A DNA stretch of 64,000 nt from Candidatus Poribacteria bacterium (lineage in GTDB: Bacteria; Poribacteria; WGA-4E; WGA-3G), in the NCBI GenBank assembly GCA_965217715.1, contig OZ244563.1, positions 3,493,083 to 3,557,082 on the forward strand, given 5' to 3'. The notes beneath the pieces are model-generated. The model worked only from the letters and a program-made list of their open reading frames with translations, made no database searches and was not told the origin of the DNA. The translations under genes and the position numbers were made by a program. Shown here in pieces: positions 5,184 through 44,533 of the stretch (position 1 is its first letter; the number at the start of each line of letters is the position of its first letter).

Positions 5184-6716
5184 TCAATTAAACCTATTTT
5201 CAACCTCACCAAACGACAGAATTTTCTTTATCTTCCCCGGTTGTGCCCAGTTACACTTTCCTGCCCCATTAAGTTGTCGCAACAATATCGGAATTTCTGG
5301 ATTTTCAAGTGAGGTTTTAATCCTTTGTGCTTCGTCTTTAGACCAGCACGGGATAAACGCATGCATCGCCTGATTGCCTTGCCACATCTGCCCATCTACA
5401 CTACTTAATATAATCGGGTTAAATTGATTCTTCCCATACGCCTGCCATATCACCTTGAAAGGTGCAAATGAATAGGGACCAACGCCAAGCATCGCCCACC
5501 AATTTCCCTTATTCATAGACGCACGCAGCATCGTGCCTTTCCTTGCTTGTAGTTGGTCTTGGTAGCGCTGAAGATAGTCCTGCAATATGTCATATTTTCC
5601 GATTTGATCCCATGTAAGCGGTTTTCCCGTTTCCCGATGATACGGCAGCAGAATCCATTTGTGAGGTGATAATACATTTTGCCGCCATATCTCCTTGCTT
5701 GCGAGGGGATATAGAAATTCTTCGGGGAGATGTGAAGGTTTGTGGTCAAAGATAAAAACACTATTCGCACCACATGTATTCACACCTTGCCGCGGCTTTT
5801 GTTCAGGTCCTAATCTGATCTCAAGTGTTTCACCCGCCTTGAGTTCATCAAGGTTTTGCACTACCCGCCATGGGTCAGTAGGATTTTTGAGCGGTAAAGC
5901 CTTATGTTCAATCCAATTTCCATCCACCTCTTTGAAATATGTGACTGGAAATTCCTGTTGTGTATCACTTTGAAACCTTGCACAACAGTATGCAGTGTTA
6001 ACCCCATCAAACACTTTAGTAGATGTAAATTCATAAACAACATCTATGGCAAAATTCCGATAGGTATCAAAGAAACTTTGCGAGCATTTAGCACTATAAT
6101 TTCTAAATCCGCTATGTGCGCCATCGCCAAAGAAGAGAGATGTCGGGAGATAGAAATAACCTGAACCGTTCTTTTTGAGTAGTTTTCCGAGAGCAATCTT
6201 CAGCACCAACGCCGCTATATCAACGCGAGAAGACCCCAAAAGTGTCCGTTGCGTATCCGCAACAAGTCCTTCTTGAATAAAATAGGGTTTTAGAAGTGTT
6301 TTGTAAGTCGTAGGTAAGTCTCCGAAGTTTGCCCACGGCGGATTCCCAATGAGAATGTCATATTGTTGTGTATGCGCCTCCGTGATAACATCTTGACAGA
6401 AGATTTGAGAGGAAGGAAAATCAACGCCAAATTCTCGTTGAACATTTTCTCTGAACTGCTCAAGGAACGAAGGGACTATCTCAATGAGCGTTAGACGTGA
6501 CATACGTTCCGCGCTAATTGGAATTCCTCTGTTCCGTGCGATATGGAGCATCGCTAAGACGAATACACCTTGTCCTGCTGTAGGGTCACAAATATGAGCA
6601 CCGTCAAGCCACGCATCAAAGATATCCCACTTATTGATGAGCCATTCTGCCCATTTGAGTGGTGTAAAAACTTTTCCGATATTAGCGTCTATTAAATGAG
6701 AAATGTTTGTATCCAT
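5184..6716 (-). CDS. N6-adenine DNA methyltransferase, gamma class (M.TaqI-like)
   Basis: GKVFTP at the N-terminus, motif I DPTAGQGVF, motif IV IGNPPW, then GSGYFYLPTSLF. The order and spacing match M.TaqI-type gamma methyltransferases. A long C-terminal target-recognition region follows. Confidence 0.8.
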   Translation of the reverse strand: MDTNISHLIDANIGKVFTPLKWAEWLINKWDIFDAWLDGAHICDPTAGQGVFVLAMLHIARNRGIPISAERMSRLTLIEIVPSFLEQFRENVQREFGVDFPSSQIFCQDVITEAHTQQYDILIGNPPWANFGDLPTTYKTLLKPYFIQEGLVADTQRTLLGSSRVDIAALVLKIALGKLLKKNGSGYFYLPTSLFFGDGAHSGFRNYSAKCSQSFFDTYRNFAIDVVYEFTSTKVFDGVNTAYCCARFQSDTQQEFPVTYFKEVDGNWIEHKALPLKNPTDPWRVVQNLDELKAGETLEIRLGPEQKPRQGVNTCGANSVFIFDHKPSHLPEEFLYPLASKEIWRQNVLSPHKWILLPYHRETGKPLTWDQIGKYDILQDYLQRYQDQLQARKGTMLRASMNKGNWWAMLGVGPYSFAPFKVIWQAYGKNQFNPIILSSVDGQMWQGNQAMHAFIPCWSKDEAQRIKTSLENPEIPILLRQLNGAGKCNWAQPGKIKKILSFGEVENRFN

Positions 6717-7356
6717 TGTTTCTAAATGCCTCTAAATCTGCAATACGTCTTAACGCGTCACTGCTAACTCGTCTATAATGTTGGATAGCGAGATCTATGA
6801 ACATATCATAAAAATCAGTAATATCCCGATTCCAATCAATTTCCTCCCAAACTTGGTTAACTGTGTAATTAAGCCGTATCTGTCCAGTACCAAGATTTTC
6901 AATTCTGTATGCATCCTGAGGGAATAAAATAAAAGGTGCTACACGGATATATACAAAATCGCGTTTTTCACTCTGGGGAGATAATTTGTTGTGTCCAAAT
7001 TCTGCGATAAGGAACATCCCATTATCATTTGCCAGAAATTTCAACAAATTACCAACAGCACAAATCCCACCATCAGAGTACCGAGTTGAATCTAGGTCCT
7101 TAGTTTTAACATCAACTCCAATGATTCTATTTTCAAACTGTAAAGCAAAATCAAAGATGGTACGTCTTCCTGGTCGTACTAACGCAGGATATCCAAGATC
7201 TGAACACATCTGGTCCCAATTATCAGCTATCTTTTTTTCAATCATTGCTCCAAAAGCTCGGGAATCTTCGCGTGCTGCTAACCCCGATGTTAGTTCTTCA
7301 GAAAAAATCTCAGATAGTTTATCTTCTATTTGACTGGATATTTCCTTTAGATCCAT
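6682..7356 (-). CDS. Putative Type II restriction endonuclease (PD-DxK-like)
   Basis: 224-aa ORF overlapping the methyltransferase start by 35 nt on the same strand. It contains IFDFAL ... IIGVDVKTK, consistent with a D...DxK nuclease core. No other recognisable domain. Confidence 0.45.
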   Translation of the reverse strand: MDLKEISSQIEDKLSEIFSEELTSGLAAREDSRAFGAMIEKKIADNWDQMCSDLGYPALVRPGRRTIFDFALQFENRIIGVDVKTKDLDSTRYSDGGICAVGNLLKFLANDNGMFLIAEFGHNKLSPQSEKRDFVYIRVAPFILFPQDAYRIENLGTGQIRLNYTVNQVWEEIDWNRDITDFYDMFIDLAIQHYRRVSSDALRRIADLEAFRNNGYKHFSFNRR

Positions 7357-7626
7357 AAAATTCCTCCTCTTCCATTCATTATAGTCAATTTATTAGTATG
7401 ATATTACAATTATGCCAACAACCGAGATCGTTGGGACAGTCGCAATAACCCTTGTTACAATGTTAGTATGTATTTTATCACTTATGAATATATTAATCAA
7501 CTTGTTAAATTTCTTTTGGCTTGACCTTTTCAGAGCAAATATGGTACCATTTGATAACCACCTGTCCTAACAATGTTTTCCGCACACTGTAACGGCACTT
7601 ATGGATAGTGAAAGGCAGATTATGCA

Positions 7627-8475
7627 ATGGCAGCAATAAAAACAGACCTTTATCTTGGAGATTGTTTAGAGGTTCTGTCCAATTTTGACACCGATTCGTT
7701 TGACCTGATTGTGACTTCTCCGCCATACGCAGATCGCCGATCCAAAACGTATGGCGGAATCAATCCCAATGAATATGTAAATTGGTTTATGCCTCGCGCT
7801 GAACAATTTTTACGAGTCCTCAAGCCATCTGGCACATTCATCCTGAACATTAAAGAAAAAGCCGTTAACGGAGAACGGCACACTTATGTTATTGAGTTGA
7901 TACTTGAAATGAAAAAACAGGGATGGTTGTGGACAGAGGAGTTTATCTGGCACAAGAAAAACAGTTATCCGGGCAAATGGCCGAACCGATTCAGAGATGC
8001 TTGGGAAAGATGTCTACAGTTTAACAAAAGCAAGAAATTCAATATGTATCAAGAGGCTGTTATGGTGCCGATGGGAGATTGGGCGAAGAAGAGGTTGAAA
8101 AATCTCAGCGAAACAGATCAGAGTCGGGATACGTCAAAAGTGGGTAGTGGGTTTGGTAAAAATGTGTCAAATTGGTTAGACCGCAAAATGGCGTATCCGA
8201 CAAATGTTTTGCACTTAGCAACGGAAACGGGAAACCGAAAACATAGTGCCGTTTTCCCTAAGACTTTGCCTGAGTGGTTTATCAAGTTGTTTACGCAAGA
8301 AAATGATTGGGTGCTTGACCCGTTTGCAGGTTCAGCGACGACTTGTCAGATTGCTCAAAAGTTATCTCGAAATTCTGTGGGTATTGAAATTTTTCCCGAA
8401 TACTACCATGTTGCAAAGGAAAATATCAAACCAACACCATTTAAGATTGAGCACGAGATGAGGGCAACTATTTGA
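7627..8475 (+). CDS. DNA methyltransferase, beta class (N4-cytosine or N6-adenine; PF01555-like)
   Basis: DLIVTSPPYADRR (SPPY motif IV) near the N-terminus and VLDPFAGSATT (motif I) near the C-terminus. That circularly permuted order is typical of beta-class N4C/N6A methyltransferases. Divergent from the methyltransferase/nuclease pair. Confidence 0.8.
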   Translation: MAAIKTDLYLGDCLEVLSNFDTDSFDLIVTSPPYADRRSKTYGGINPNEYVNWFMPRAEQFLRVLKPSGTFILNIKEKAVNGERHTYVIELILEMKKQGWLWTEEFIWHKKNSYPGKWPNRFRDAWERCLQFNKSKKFNMYQEAVMVPMGDWAKKRLKNLSETDQSRDTSKVGSGFGKNVSNWLDRKMAYPTNVLHLATETGNRKHSAVFPKTLPEWFIKLFTQENDWVLDPFAGSATTCQIAQKLSRNSVGIEIFPEYYHVAKENIKPTPFKIEHEMRATI

Positions 8476-8780
8476 ATTATGCCTACAACATTTTGCAATG
8501 CTGAAGGCAACATGCTTTGGGAAGAAATCGTTAAATTTAATTCTGCAGAGACCCGTCTTGAAGCCAATCCCAAGTCCGTTTGATACTGAATTTTTAATCA
8601 TTTCCCACAACGAACTCCTATCTCCTAATCTCAAATAAACCAATCCACTTTCCCACCGAAAAACACCCTCTCAATTCAAACTGAATCCTCTGTATTAGCC
8701 ACAATTTTTCTGGACAAGCAGCGAATCCCATGCTATGCTAAACACCATATATCACATAGCTATTATACAGAGGAGAAGTT

Positions 8781-10337
8781 ATGGCAAACGAAGATTTTAC
8801 CTCTAAAGTACCGCACTATACCTTCGCGGAAACGTTGGAAGAACAGGAAGAACAGTTAAAAACCAATCCGTTAATGCAACGGTTGAACGCTTATCGTAAA
8901 ACTTACAAAGACGACCCGCACCGTCCGATCTACCATTACATCAATCCAGAAGCAATGCTCAATGACCCGAATGGACTCTGTTTCTGGCAGGGACGGTGGC
9001 ATCTTTTCTATCAGGCATATCCACCAGAAGATACACGTCAGCACTGGGGACACGCCGTTAGTGATGACCTCATCCATTGGCGTGATCTACCCTACGCAAT
9101 ATATCCGAACCCGGAACGCTGCTGTTTCTCCGGTTCAACTTTCGTGGAAGAAGACCGCGTGATAGCGATGTATCACGGCACAGTTGTCGGCAACATGGTG
9201 GCGGTATCAAGCGACCCGCTCCTTCTGAATTGGGAGAAGGTCTCCGGCAAGGCAGTCATCCCATCAAGACATGCAGACGGCACAACACCTATCTACCGTG
9301 TTTTTGATCCGTGCATCTGGGAAAAAGACGACATGTATTACTCGCTATCGGGCGGAACGTTACCGCATGGCCCTGGTGGTAAACCTGTTCGCGCCAATTT
9401 CTTACTCCGCTCGGCAGACTTAGCGAACTGGGTCTATTTGCACCCCTTCGTTGAAGATGATCAATACACGTTGGTCGGCGATGATGGCGCATGTCCCTAT
9501 TTCTGGCCCATAGGTGACCGACACATCCTCCTATTTTTCAGTCACATGAGTGGTGGACAGTATCTGCTCGGTGATTACGACAAAGCACGTGATAAGTTTG
9601 TCGTGACAGCAGGGGCAAAAAACAATTTTGGCGTAGCATCTCCCGCTGGTGTTCATGCGCCGTCTGCGGTTCCTGATGGTGAGGGTGGTGTCATCGTAAT
9701 CTACAACATGAATCCAGCAAAACCTACCAAGGGTTGGAACCAGATTATGACGTTACCGCGCCGTCTAACGCTTCTCTCTAAAGATGAAATCGGTGTTGAA
9801 CCTGCAGGTGATATTGAATCATTGCGGTCCGACCATCAGCATGTCAATGCGACAACACTCCCCGCAAACGAGGAAGTTGTGTTAGAGAACATTAAGGGCA
9901 ATGCGATGGAACTTGAACTCGAAATTGACACCAAAGGCTCCCCGATGGTTGAGTTGAACGTGCTTCGTTCGCCGCAGAAAGAGGAATTCACCCGAATCGC
10001 TTTCTTCAGAGAACGCGGTATGCGTAATCACAATTCGGACAGAAATGTACGTGAAAGCCTGCTAACGATAGATTCATCGTATTCGTCAATTGCGCCAGAT
10101 GTGCGTTCACGAGCACCCGAAACTGGTGGGTTGTCAATTTTGGGGGACGAAACGCTCAAACTACGCGTATTTGTTGACAAGAGTGTCGTAGAAGTGTTCG
10201 CCAATGGACGGCAATGTGTTGCTATGCGCGTCTATCCCGACAGGGAAGATAGTGTTGGTGTGTCTTTGCGTTCTCAAGGGCAAGACAGTGAACTCAAATC
10301 ACTGGATGCTTGGCAGATGAAGAATATCTATGCTTAA
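8781..10337 (+). CDS. Glycoside hydrolase family 32-like (beta-fructofuranosidase/levanase fold)
   Basis: YHYINPEAMLNDPNGLCFWQGRWHLFYQ (NDPNG nucleophile block), WGHAVSDDLIHW and FSGS blocks. The RDP-like (VFDP) and EC-like (ACPY) blocks look non-canonical. Confidence 0.7.
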   Translation: MANEDFTSKVPHYTFAETLEEQEEQLKTNPLMQRLNAYRKTYKDDPHRPIYHYINPEAMLNDPNGLCFWQGRWHLFYQAYPPEDTRQHWGHAVSDDLIHWRDLPYAIYPNPERCCFSGSTFVEEDRVIAMYHGTVVGNMVAVSSDPLLLNWEKVSGKAVIPSRHADGTTPIYRVFDPCIWEKDDMYYSLSGGTLPHGPGGKPVRANFLLRSADLANWVYLHPFVEDDQYTLVGDDGACPYFWPIGDRHILLFFSHMSGGQYLLGDYDKARDKFVVTAGAKNNFGVASPAGVHAPSAVPDGEGGVIVIYNMNPAKPTKGWNQIMTLPRRLTLLSKDEIGVEPAGDIESLRSDHQHVNATTLPANEEVVLENIKGNAMELELEIDTKGSPMVELNVLRSPQKEEFTRIAFFRERGMRNHNSDRNVRESLLTIDSSYSSIAPDVRSRAPETGGLSILGDETLKLRVFVDKSVVEVFANGRQCVAMRVYPDREDSVGVSLRSQGQDSELKSLDAWQMKNIYA

Positions 10338-10637
10338 AAAGTTACGGTTCTTCGTATCCTACGTGCTATAAACATCTCGCCTTTACAAGAAGGAAGACTA
10401 TAGGATTCGAAGAACCGTGATCTGAACAAACCGTGGGGAATGTTGATATGGCAGAAAAGGGGATAAATAACAGGAAAAATCCTATTTTGCAGTCGGTGGT
10501 GCAGCAAAGATCGTCTCAATGGACGTGTGGCAAATGCGCTCTATTTGGGAAGAATTGAAATATCGGGAAGGGGAGTAGGAAGATAAATAAGATCAACAAT
10601 TTCATGATAATTTTAAAACATAAAGGAGTAAGAAGCC

Positions 10638-11789
10638 ATGAAACGTCTCACACTAACATCGCTGGGACAAATCCGTGAAGCCGATATTGTCTTTGGAGAT
10701 CTGACAGTGTTTGTCGGTGAACAAGCGAGTGGAAAGAGCATTCTACTCCAACTTGTAAAGTTAATTTCAGACGCAGGCGATACTACGCAAACTCTCAAAA
10801 AACACGGTTTTGATTGGCAGAAAAAAGTTGAGAATTTTTTATCTCTTTATTTTGGTGAAGGGATGGGGACGATTTGGAACAAGGATGAGACGAAAGTCAC
10901 CGTTGATAAGGTAGATTTTACGCCTCGAAAAGCGTTATTAAAGAGAAAGAAAGATGAGAGTCTTTTTCTGATACCGGCACACCGTGTTGTAACATTAAAA
11001 GATGGATGGCCACGTGCTTTTACCGACTATGGCACGAGCGATCCGTACGTCGTTAAGGAGTTCAGCGAACAATTGCGCCTATTGATGGAAGCGGGTTTTG
11101 GTTCAGGTGAAAGCCCTATATTTCCTCATGCAGGTCGTATGAATAAAACAATACGAGATGCAATCGGGAAAAGTATCTTTGGGGAGGCTGAGTTGAGATT
11201 GGATAGATCCGGGCTGCGTAAACGGATTGTATTAGATGTTGCGGGTGCTCAACTACCATTTATGGTGTGGTCTACAGGTCAGAGAGAATTCGCTCCTCTT
11301 TTACTGGGACTGTACAGGTTAATGCCTTCAGGAAGAGCGCAAAAGAAAAATAACATCAACTGGGTTGTTATTGAAGAACCGGAAATGGGGTTGCATCCCA
11401 AAGCGATCTCAGCACTTCTCCTCATATTTTTAGAGTTATTAAGACGAGGTTACAAAGTCATTGTTTCGACCCATTCATCGCAAATTTTAGAACTTATCTG
11501 GGCTATTCAACTCATTGCTAAATCAAAAAATGCACCAGCAAGGTTAAGACAGTTGCTGGATTTGAAACCGAATAGCTTTTCCTATGACCTTACAGAGACA
11601 GTCATGCACAAAAAAACGTTCAAAACCTATTATTTCTCTCGTGAAGACAGTGTTGTAAATGTCAAAAATATCTCAACATTAGATGCGGAGGACATGGATG
11701 TTGAAGTATCGGATTGGGGAGGGTTAACAGCATTCAGTACTAAAGTTTCTGAAGTCGTCTCTGAAGCTATGTGGAGGACAGACGTGTGA
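10638..11789 (+). CDS. AAA_21/AAA_15-type ABC ATPase (OLD/Septu/PARIS-like defense ATPase family)
   Basis: Walker A GEQASGKS. Mid-protein VIEEPEMGLHP (ABC signature/D-loop analog typical of AAA_21). H-loop VSTHSSQIL. Confidence 0.75.
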   Translation: MKRLTLTSLGQIREADIVFGDLTVFVGEQASGKSILLQLVKLISDAGDTTQTLKKHGFDWQKKVENFLSLYFGEGMGTIWNKDETKVTVDKVDFTPRKALLKRKKDESLFLIPAHRVVTLKDGWPRAFTDYGTSDPYVVKEFSEQLRLLMEAGFGSGESPIFPHAGRMNKTIRDAIGKSIFGEAELRLDRSGLRKRIVLDVAGAQLPFMVWSTGQREFAPLLLGLYRLMPSGRAQKKNNINWVVIEEPEMGLHPKAISALLLIFLELLRRGYKVIVSTHSSQILELIWAIQLIAKSKNAPARLRQLLDLKPNSFSYDLTETVMHKKTFKTYYFSREDSVVNVKNISTLDAEDMDVEVSDWGGLTAFSTKVSEVVSEAMWRTDV

Positions 11790-12238
11790 ATATTTTCAAA
11801 AAAGCAGTTCGGAGTGTACCTGAAATACACGATTGTTTCAAAGACGGGTTACAGGCATTAGGGTCAAATAGTAGCAAGATAAAAGGATATGCGAAAGGTG
11901 ACCTTGTAGGAAGTGTTAACATAGACACTTGTCTCAAAAACCGTTATCCGAACGCATCCCGTTGGGATTATGTATTTGGTTGTAATGACAGGATTTACTA
12001 TGTTGAAGTTCATCAAGGGAAAACAAGTGAAGTAACAAAAATTGTTGAGAAATTAAATTGGTTAAAACAATGGCATAAGACTGCAGCAACGAGTCTTGAA
12101 AATTTGAAGGATCGGAGCATCTATCACTGGGTCTCTACGAAAGGAACTGCATCAATTGCCAAAGGAAGCAGACATCGCAGAAGATTAGATCAAAATGGCA
12201 TCCGTGGACCGAGTGCCGTATTGCGTATTGAACGCTGA
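11771..12238 (+). CDS. Small hypothetical protein (155 aa) overlapping the ATPase gene; candidate effector/partner
   Basis: Its start overlaps the ATPase stop by about 19 nt, which suggests translational coupling. No recognisable domain. RWDYVFGCNDRIYYVEVHQGK has a weak D...E.K flavour. Confidence 0.45.
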   Translation: MEDRRVNIFKKAVRSVPEIHDCFKDGLQALGSNSSKIKGYAKGDLVGSVNIDTCLKNRYPNASRWDYVFGCNDRIYYVEVHQGKTSEVTKIVEKLNWLKQWHKTAATSLENLKDRSIYHWVSTKGTASIAKGSRHRRRLDQNGIRGPSAVLRIER

Positions 12239-12302
12239 TTCTATCTCGTAATTATGTTGTTTCTTGACTCAGACGGTTACTTGAAACTATGGAAAAATAC
12301 AA

Positions 12303-12935
12303 ATGAGCAAATCCATTGAAAAGGTCACTGCATTTATTACACAAAAACGAAATGAGGTGAACGCGCTACTTGTATTTAAACATCCCACTGCTGGCATCCA
12401 AATTCCTGCAGGCACAGTTGAAGAGGGTGAAGATATTGAAACAGCGGTAAAGAGAGAAGTCTATGAAGAAACAGGACTACAGCATGTAAAAATTGAGAAA
12501 TATCTCGGTTGTATTGAAAATGAATTAGACGAACAAGAACGGATAATAACAGAAACAACCAACGTTTATATTAAACCCGATTTAAACGCAATTCCTTACA
12601 GAGACAAGCTAACCAGAGGACTTACTGTAGAACATCATTCTACTGGCAAAGACTTCACGCACATTTCATATTTTGAATATGATAAATTTCCCAATCCTTC
12701 TTATGTCGCCTATAATATTACGGGATGGGTGCCGAATACAAACTTGAGTAAACAAAAAACAAGACATTTCTTCCTATTGAGCACAACTGAAGAAACAGAG
12801 GATATGTGGGAATTGAAAAGCGATAGAGGTCATATTTTTCAACCTTTTTGGACACCGCTTTCACCGAAGCCCGAAATTGTGTTCCCGCAAAATAGGTGGA
12901 TGGACTTTGTCTACGAGAAAATACTTGCCGAATAA
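12303..12935 (+). CDS. NUDIX hydrolase
   Basis: NUDIX box GTVEEGEDIETAVKREVYEETGL (G-x5-E-x7-REVxEETG). Confidence 0.7.
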   Translation: MSKSIEKVTAFITQKRNEVNALLVFKHPTAGIQIPAGTVEEGEDIETAVKREVYEETGLQHVKIEKYLGCIENELDEQERIITETTNVYIKPDLNAIPYRDKLTRGLTVEHHSTGKDFTHISYFEYDKFPNPSYVAYNITGWVPNTNLSKQKTRHFFLLSTTEETEDMWELKSDRGHIFQPFWTPLSPKPEIVFPQNRWMDFVYEKILAE

Positions 12936-13596
12936 CTGTAGTAACAACATCTCAGGAAAATAAGCAACAATAATCAATTTCAAAGATGAACACTGCCGCT
13001 GCATCGTCCAGCACAGTTTCATTGAGTTGGCGGAAGCGGAGTTAATCAAGCGACGAGACGAACCGATTCTCTGGTGCTAACGTTGTGGACAGCAATCGCT
13101 CTACGCTTCCCTCGATGATGATTATCACGGCCGGTGAGACAGAGATATCTCGGCTTGCACCCATCACCGAGGATTTGCGTGCCGCCCATGCCGCGTCGCT
13201 CGGATTCGGAGAAGGTGGGATATCCCAACAGAAACCAAAAACATTACCTTAAAGCGTGTACTGGGTGAAAAGAAACCGAAACATTGAATCTGTAAGCCCT
13301 CAATATACTTACTATTACAACGCAAGTTACCACTTGAGTATCCATGAATGTTCGATTAGCAGATACCTCTCAGCAAGCATCGCTCTCAGAAAGCTGTCAT
13401 GCTGAAAGCATAAAATATCCAGCCACCACTGAATTCGTCCAGATTTTTTGTTTAGAAAATTGAAACTGTGATAGAATGACAAACAATGGTAGGAGCGATT
13501 CAGTGGTATGTCCACACATTACATGTTTAACTCGTATATGTCGTCACGAATTCACAATTCACAACCTTCTTACACAATGAAAGGAGATCATGACAG

Positions 13597-44365: not shown

Positions 44366-44440
44366 CGGGCCCGACGGGATTTGAACCCGCGACCTCCTGC
44401 GTGACAGGCAGGCGCGCTAAGCCAACTGCGCCACGAGCCC
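44366..44440 (-). tRNA. tRNA-Asp (GTC)
   Basis: Minus-strand sequence GGGCTCGTGGCGCAGTTGGCTAGCGCGCCTGCCTGTCACGCAGGAGGTCGCGGGTTCAAATCCCGTCGGGCCCG. Anticodon loop CTGTCAC. Cloverleaf arms are identifiable. CCA is not encoded. Confidence 0.85.
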
Positions 44441-44459
44441 ATAAGATGCCTCTAACAAA

Positions 44460-44533
44460 TAGGCGGGACAGGACTTGAACCTGTGACCTACAGCTTGTAA
44501 GGCTGTCGCTCTAGCCACCTGAGCTACCCGCCC
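44460..44533 (-). tRNA. tRNA-Val (TAC)
   Basis: Minus-strand sequence GGGCGGGTAGCTCAGGTGGCTAGAGCGACAGCCTTACAAGCTGTAGGTCACAGGTTCAAGTCCTGTCCCGCCTA. Anticodon loop CTTACAA. Confidence 0.85.

Follow-up and report, generated by a model that had tools for sequence, protein, structure and literature searches.

Adenosine triphosphate-binding cassette (ABC) ATPases that are paired with an effector, as in PARIS, Septu, Gabija and HEC-01 to HEC-04, constitute a major class of bacterial immune systems that continues to grow. PARIS uses six AriA ATPases as a scaffold to sequester the nuclease AriB, which is set free once a phage protein has been detected in an ATP-dependent manner (PMC11464382). HEC-02, which combines the ABC ATPase HEC-02A with the NERD nuclease HEC-02B, has been experimentally confirmed as defensive, and the same 2024 preprint reports 145 phage defence candidates obtained by "guilt-by-embedding", that is, from genes found inside BREX, DISARM and type I restriction-modification (R-M) systems, which its authors state to be untested (Payne et al., bioRxiv 10.1101/2024.01.29.577857). 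Here we describe two adjacent genes, A and B, on a contig of a Candidatus Poribacteria bacterium (OZ244563.1, positions 3,493,083 to 3,557,082, a stretch of 64,000 nucleotides (nt) hereafter called the window), and we show that they correspond to one of these candidates, PDC-M56. The reading that we favour, with a probability of roughly 0.6, is that the pair is a PDC-M56 defence cassette in which the ATPase A controls a nuclease effector, B, and of which the NUDIX hydrolase encoded just downstream is not a component.

Catalogue identity and linkage of the pair

The three open reading frames (ORFs) from which the original prediction was built are all present and co-oriented on the forward strand of the window: gene A (10638..11789; 383 amino acids (aa)), gene B (11786..12238; 150 aa from a GTG start) and the NUDIX hydrolase gene (12303..12935; 210 aa). 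Against PADLOC-DB v2.0.0, the A protein matches PDC-M56A with an E-value of 9.3e-155 and 513 bits, residues 1-378 aligning to positions 1-378 of 382, with AriA as the runner-up model at 72 bits. The B protein matches PDC-M56B with an E-value of 1.9e-48 and 162 bits, residues 6-149 aligning to positions 5-147 of 151 (143 positions). The two genes are adjacent and co-oriented with A preceding B, which is the order of the PDC-M56 cassette, recorded as CAS_00181 (FAM_00005>>FAM_02395), defined as two genes, found in 47 occurrences and marked "Assign as candidate PDC-M56" (bioRxiv 10.1101/2024.01.29.577857, supplementary file 8). It had been suggested from the sequence that A and B represent an undescribed ATPase-effector pairing; because both proteins match PDC-M56A and PDC-M56B over their full length, this suggestion has to be given up, and the pairing is already catalogued, solely as a computational candidate without fold, mechanism or experiment. 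On these profile matches, A-B is a poribacterial member of PDC-M56, and nothing about it differs at the family level. What we add is the assignment of a nuclease fold to B, a candidate active site, the size and breadth of the B family, the conserved coupling of A and B, the poribacterial synteny, and the demotion of the NUDIX gene to a neighbour.

As judged from its sequence, A is an ABC-type ATPase of the AAA_21/AAA_15 kind with all catalytic motifs intact. In Pfam it matches AAA_21 with 73.8 bits (cutoff 27; 3e-20) and AAA_15 with 66.3 bits (cutoff 32.1; 5e-18). The Walker A (GEQASGKS, G27-S34, nt 10716-10739), the EEPE.GLHP block and the THS block described at the outset are all there: the Walker B, VVIEE (V243-E247), continues into PEMGLHP (243-254 in all), a signature-like STGQ lies at S212-Q215, and the H-loop reads STHS (H279). 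These motifs are invariant or nearly so among 65 aligned homologs. The most variable segment of A is its C-terminal domain, at about residues 291-383.

The longest ORF of B, from the first in-frame GTG, runs from 11771 to 12238 and encodes 155 aa, and this numbering is used for B residues throughout. However, homologs of B begin at the position equivalent to V6 of this ORF, and the database protein P0001, which is 99% identical to the window's B, is 150 aa long; hence the true start of B is probably the GTG at 11786, which yields 150 aa and a 4-nt overlap with the stop codon of A. At this junction (11786..11789) the sequence reads GAC GTG TGA, so that the GTG start of B and the TGA stop of A share GTGA, with B in the +1 register. 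A Shine-Dalgarno sequence for B, GGAGG (11773..11777), lies inside the 3' end of gene A and is separated from the GTG by 8 nt, and another, AAGGAG (10623..10628), precedes the start codon (ATG) of A at a distance of 9 nt. Upstream of A, 7 nt past the stop codon of a GH32 gene, the forward strand carries a hairpin (10344..10418) with 18-nt arms that are 94% complementary and a 39-nt loop, which was found in an inverted-repeat scan and is probably the terminator of the GH32 gene. The hairpin and the AAGGAG in front of A suggest that A-B is a transcription unit of its own. Scans of the window for promoters and terminators returned nothing above the shuffled background, and no flanking direct or inverted repeats that would point to a mobile cassette were found in the window.

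To place the pair among other genomes, we collected loci of B relatives through a pattern scan with one genome per GTDB species, and sought A homologs beside B by tblastn (loci are labelled L0xx). The scan returned 67 loci, of which 49 belong to Candidatus Poribacteria or to unclassified metagenome-assembled genomes (MAGs) with the same synteny, 15 to Bacteroidota (including Bacteroides, Parabacteroides, Mediterranea, Mucilaginibacter, Runella, Cytophagales, Prevotellaceae and Muribaculaceae), two to Anaerolineae/Anaerolineales (Chloroflexota) and one to Oscillospiraceae (Bacillota). An A homolog adjoins B at every one of the 67 loci, in four phyla, and lies directly upstream of B at 66 of them, the exception being L023; at L067 the A copy is truncated. 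A fifth phylum is reached with a mobilizable plasmid of 99.8 kb in Opitutaceae TAV5 (Verrucomicrobiota), which also carries the pair. On that plasmid the B-family gene (L068 8001-8486, equivalent to CP007054.1 91098-91583) is missing from the gene table and is probably an unannotated gene; it lies downstream of OPIT5_00420, the A homolog, which is 43% identical.

The conservation of the small ORF beside AAA_21 homologs had been set beforehand as the point on which the proposal could fall, and since B is conserved beside A homologs at 67/67 loci, the A-B module is real. The junction supports the translational coupling that had been suspected from the overlap in the window: a 4-nt NTGA overlap occurs at 32 loci, overlaps of 8-19 nt at 24, and gaps of 7-16 nt at three. 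Because the two genes are always adjacent and co-oriented, usually with overlapping stop and start codons, the arrangement indicates that A and B are co-translated.

Predicted fold and candidate active site of B

B had been described as having no recognisable domain, and indeed it has no match in Pfam or NCBIfam and no significant match in PHROGs. When 78 diverse members of the family were scanned against Pfam at E ≤ 1, no family recurred and no nuclease family appeared, and a B profile searched against PDB sequences gave chance-level matches only, with no nuclease among them. The family itself is large. A word-indexed search recovered 207 relatives of B, and an exhaustive profile search recovered 1,092 clusters at 50% identity with E ≤ 1e-3, of which 710 had E ≤ 1e-10; almost all are stand-alone proteins of 140-170 aa. 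PDC-M56B thus comprises about a thousand sequence clusters in at least five phyla. Two longer database proteins were also seen, P0188 (395 aa), in which B residues 1-108 are fused to the C-terminal region of a UvrD-like helicase, and P0266 (389 aa), in which the N-terminal ~215 residues of A are fused to a complete B; in either case a frameshifted or chimeric gene call is more probable than a real architecture, and neither protein gives a functional hint.

An AlphaFold2 model built from an alignment of the 78 diverse representatives, which replaced a first model from 30 close homologs with a predicted local distance difference test score (pLDDT) of 70, reached a pLDDT of 95.1 and a predicted template-modelling score of 0.90. 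In this model, helix 28-36 is followed by strands 45-50, 67-71 and 74-81, helix 85-105 and strand 116-122, and the core has the alpha-beta-beta-beta-alpha-beta order of the restriction-endonuclease-like fold. A cryptic nuclease fold, which was to be looked for in the small protein by structure prediction, is therefore what the model predicts. Residues S48, D66, Y67, E79, H81, K94 and W120 are invariant among the 78 members, and G47, D52, R64, W65, W97, L98 and W101 are nearly so. In the model, D66 (codon 11966-8) lies just before strand 2, at the "PD" position; E79 (12005-7) and H81 (12011-3), as E79-V-H81, lie on strand 3, at the "(D/E)xK" position; and K94 (12050-2) sits on the helix that follows strand 3.

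Structural comparisons point in the same direction. Against the PDB, the top Foldseek matches to the B model are Cdn1 (9u49_A, E 1.8e-3, probability 1.0) and Can2, with further nuclease matches to VC1899, N.BspD6I, Can1, Mus81, Hjc, SfsA, Bse634I and the AddAB nuclease, interspersed with low-probability matches to unrelated proteins (gelsolin, Ndi1). Among BFVD matches with informative names, most are restriction endonucleases, PD-(D/E)XK proteins, Mrr, VRR-NUC, RecU or Holliday-junction resolvases. Each individual match is weak, with a template-modelling (TM) score of about 0.3 over ~85 residues, and the canonical lysine of (D/E)xK is replaced by a histidine; because of these two points we grade B as a probable PD-(D/E)xK-like nuclease with a variant motif. 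The invariant K94 on the helix could stand in for the canonical lysine, and because of the histidine substitution we infer catalysis by B from the model rather than regard it as shown.

Genomic setting and evolution

The pair had been placed in a defence island, about 2 kb from an R-M cluster. The distance is confirmed: the cluster ends 2.2 kb upstream of A, with the GH32 gene between the R-M genes and A, and R-M genes occur near the pair in other Poribacteria as well. The idea of an island stands only in part when the 18 non-poribacterial loci are considered, because known defence genes adjoin the pair at just three of them, and at the other 15 no PADLOC neighbour was found at E ≤ 1e-15. A Mucilaginibacter sp. 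carries the pair inside a type I R-M operon, HsdR-HsdS-[A-B]-HsdM; in L063, a Bacteroidota MAG, it abuts HsdM and HsdS, again of type I R-M; and in L065, a Prevotellaceae MAG, it precedes QatA. Within Poribacteria, about 48 species-level genomes have the pair in one and the same syntenic setting, between the GH32 gene and a gene for a Gfo/Idh/MocA oxidoreductase (GFO), and this pattern resembles vertical inheritance more than the patchy distribution typical of defence genes.

This synteny and the scarcity of defence neighbours weigh against a defence cassette, as do the copies found among housekeeping genes at several non-poribacterial loci (TsaD, Mur ligase and Lon at L059), the lack of B relatives in INPHARED phage genomes and IMG/VR viral contigs, the histidine in the motif of B, and a literature record in which no paper text among those searched mentions PDC-M56 and no experiment on it was found. 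Since retention at one locus throughout a phylum is unusual for a defence system, the pair might instead be a vertically inherited factor of DNA repair or recombination, comparable to SbcCD, RecN and OLD-type machines that join an ABC ATPase to a nuclease. The constant poribacterial site, the housekeeping neighbours elsewhere and the absence from phages and viruses would all suit such a role, but we judge it unlikely. Outside Poribacteria the distribution is patchy, with scattered Bacteroidota, Anaerolineae, one Oscillospiraceae genome and the mobilizable plasmid, and the embedding in a type I R-M operon also speaks against a housekeeping factor.

The history of the pair within Poribacteria also argues against a housekeeping role. 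A is split by a frameshift in L072 (6699-7855), and probably also in L018; in L069 (1-650) A is followed by ~450 nt of non-coding DNA and lacks B; and L009 (~6868-10000) carries a tandem A-B-A-B duplication. Such decay and turnover, through frameshift, loss of B and duplication, are typical of defence genes. Median identities to the window proteins are 91% for GH32 (the GH32 neighbours in related poribacterial loci being 87-97% identical to the window's), 79% for A, 70% for NUDIX and 56% for B, so that B evolves much faster than the gene flanking the pair. In a neighbour-joining tree of A, the two locus arrangements found in Poribacteria (described below) are not separated, which suggests exchange of the cassette. 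Taken together, the location in a hotspot, the decay, the duplication and the fast-evolving effector fit a defence cassette. Variable R-M genes and a large protein with sacsin-like ATPase and NucS_C-like regions (1,359-1,451 aa) sit alongside the poribacterial pair.

The identities of A and B to the window copies are uncorrelated across the poribacterial loci (Spearman ~0, n=43). Pairwise B distances track residues 291-383 of A best (rho 0.69, versus 0.36-0.43 for the other segments), which suggests either co-evolution or recombination with linkage. We considered this correlation as evidence for an interface between B and the C-terminal domain of A and set it aside, because, although it is compatible with an interface, such a gradient would be expected just as much from simple physical linkage when recombination occurs.

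The NUDIX gene follows the pair on the same strand in the window, as first noted, but it does not behave as a conserved part of the module. The protein matches Pfam PF00293 with 49.9 bits (cutoff 21.1; 4e-13) and has a canonical Nudix box (GX5EX7REUXEEXGU) at G37-L59 (nt 12411-12479); neither Pfam nor NCBIfam assigned it to a specific subfamily. A three-gene system, in which NUDIX would hydrolyse a nucleotide signal or a derivative of NAD or ADP-ribose, or would modulate the nucleotide pool of the ATPase, could account for its presence beside the pair, on the same strand, at about 40 of 48 poribacterial loci, where it is found in both gene orders: A-B-NUDIX-GFO (12 loci and the window) and NUDIX-A-B-GFO (~28). 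The gap between B and NUDIX in the window is 64 nt, with no terminator predicted inside it, the tandem copies of L009 show a possible route to circular permutation of the order, and the protein has a weak match to PADLOC PDC-S07 (1.6e-5). Nevertheless, we consider such a system improbable. The PDC-S07 match covers the generic Nudix-box region only, PDC-M56 is defined by two genes in PADLOC, and NUDIX is beside the pair at none of the 18 non-poribacterial loci and not at the plasmid locus. Even in Poribacteria, seven A-B loci have no intact NUDIX adjoining them (L029 retains a remnant of 27 aa). Among the contexts collected through NUDIX homologs, the NUDIX-GFO of L071 lacks an A-B within 6 kb, and at L069 a gene of 1,446 aa stands between A and NUDIX. 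The start of NUDIX is coupled to whichever gene precedes it, be it one of 411 aa or one of 1,359 aa, and because of this NUDIX behaves like a core gene with a fixed place. All of this is most simply read as two variable slots bracketed by NUDIX and GFO, both of them conserved core genes, with A-B able to fit either slot, and NUDIX is most likely a conserved poribacterial neighbour and not a part of the module.

One could also combine these elements and suppose that the poribacterial pair is a fixed, vertically inherited chromosomal module that works with the flanking NUDIX as a three-part system peculiar to this lineage, in which NUDIX might, for example, tune a nucleotide cue for the ATPase, with B as a new PD-(D/E)xK branch that has an E-x-H site plus a helix lysine and a fast-evolving surface co-varying with the C-terminal domain of A. 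We give little credence to this combination, and prefer to regard the pair as a two-gene defence cassette with NUDIX as its neighbour.

Other genes were observed at the positions next to NUDIX. In L069 (650-4990) and L071 (1929-6008), and also in L005 and L028 (ORFs of ~1,450 aa), the protein of 1,359-1,451 aa is encoded immediately upstream of NUDIX, its gene ending within ~10 nt of the NUDIX start or overlapping it. The L069 version combines a sacsin-like HATPase region (PF25794) with a nuclease motif resembling NucS_C at its C-terminus, and the protein is possibly a further defence gene in the same hotspot. In L070 (2730-5004), NUDIX is directly preceded by genes for a C5 DNA methylase of 325 aa and a protein of 411 aa, and ORFs of these two sizes occur at ~20 type II loci. 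The gene for the 411-aa protein shares 4 nt with the start of NUDIX, and its product has a spurious-looking VHL match as its only Pfam match; the two genes are likely a type II R-M pair in the slot that A-B holds in the window. On the other side of NUDIX, the window has 660 nt (12936-13596) with no convincing ORF (62 aa at most) and nothing that matches Rfam, followed by a LamG-domain gene. Since in most related loci the GFO gene directly follows NUDIX, the LamG gene and the spacer look like an insertion, which is shared with L058.

The R-M cluster of the window (5184-8475), found in only some of the related poribacterial loci, consists of an Eco57I-like or type IIG-like methyltransferase (5184..6716, reverse strand), an orphan ORF of 224 aa (6682..7356, reverse strand) and a divergent N6_N4 methyltransferase (7627..8475, forward strand). 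The orphan ORF is without a match in Pfam, PADLOC, NCBIfam or PHROGs, and because it overlaps the Eco57I-like methyltransferase gene by 35 nt and lacks any such match, it is a candidate for an uncharacterised restriction endonuclease. The sole matches at the Rfam gathering threshold in the window are two adjacent tRNA genes (44366-44533, reverse strand).

Proposed mechanism and comparison with known systems

If the pair is indeed a defence cassette, A would oligomerise and would hold or regulate B, by analogy with PARIS, Septu and HEC-02. A would then sense an infection cue in an ATP-dependent manner and license the nuclease activity of B, which may cut nucleic acid, with phage DNA, host DNA and tRNA as possible substrates, and phage replication would be blocked either directly or by abortive infection. 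We propose this division of labour, with A as the sensor and B as the cleaving partner, because of the precedents set by sequestration and release in PARIS and by the defence conferred by HEC-02.

The same parts could also be arranged as a selfish addiction element resembling a toxin-antitoxin pair, with B as a toxic nuclease and A as its ATP-dependent antidote, maintained by post-segregational killing and giving no protection from phages. The tight coupling of a small putative nuclease downstream of a putative regulator, the copy on a mobilizable plasmid, and the embedding of the pair inside other operons are all in keeping with this view. We find it very doubtful, since stable syntenic retention across a whole phylum brings no obvious addiction benefit, and PARIS, Septu and HEC-02, the related pairs with an AAA_21/AAA_15 ATPase for which tests exist, are genuine defence systems; moreover, addiction and defence by abortive infection do not exclude each other.

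As a defence cassette, PDC-M56 gains a testable model, with a fold for the partner, four candidate catalytic residues, a strict two-gene linkage and translational coupling. In the sponge-associated Poribacteria, the pair is nearly fixed beside a variable R-M hotspot, which bears on how immunity is laid out in symbionts that are heavily exposed to phages.

Among described systems, those nearest to A-B differ from it in distinct ways. Cdn1, Can2 and Card1, ancillary effectors of CRISPR and CBASS whose nuclease domains are RecB-like PD-(D/E)xK domains, include the solved structures that come nearest to the B model (9u49_A, E 1.8e-3; 8bao; 1xmx) and have in common with B the strand order of the core and the position of the acidic residues. 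However, the identity is ~16% with a TM score of ~0.3, and theirs are domains of proteins of ~400 aa that carry CARF or other sensors, whereas B stands alone and is paired with an ATPase. Gabija and class 1 OLD proteins differ in that A has no fused TOPRIM, its 383 aa matching the ATPase region only, and no helicase gene, such as GajB of Gabija, adjoins the pair in the window. Septu and the retron-associated PtuAB resemble A-B in joining an AAA_15/21 ATPase to a small downstream nuclease, and A has weak matches to PtuA (6.7e-9 in PADLOC; 4e-10 in NCBIfam, far under the cutoff). Yet B has no HNH or PtuB match, and its predicted fold is PD-(D/E)xK-like rather than HNH.

PARIS is likewise a two-gene system of an ATPase and a nuclease, and no named system scores better for A than AriA (1.8e-20), but the match covers only the C-terminal Walker B/H-loop region of A (203-284), and A has 383 aa while AriA is ~55 kDa. 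B, for its part, is not a DUF4435/TOPRIM protein like AriB and matches PDC-M56B alone in PADLOC, in agreement with the initial view that the partner is neither PtuB nor AriB. HEC-02 shares with A-B the arrangement of an ABC ATPase of ~340-380 aa followed by a nuclease of the PD-(D/E)xK superfamily, and A aligns with HEC-02A over residues 2-284, nearly its whole length (E 4e-11). Even so, the score of A is 513 bits with its own model against ~41 bits with that of HEC-02A, and B matches neither NERD in Pfam nor HEC-02B in PADLOC, is much smaller, and has E-x-H in place of E-x-K. A-B is thus not a new kind of system, but belongs to the well-known defence pairs of an ABC ATPase and a nuclease.

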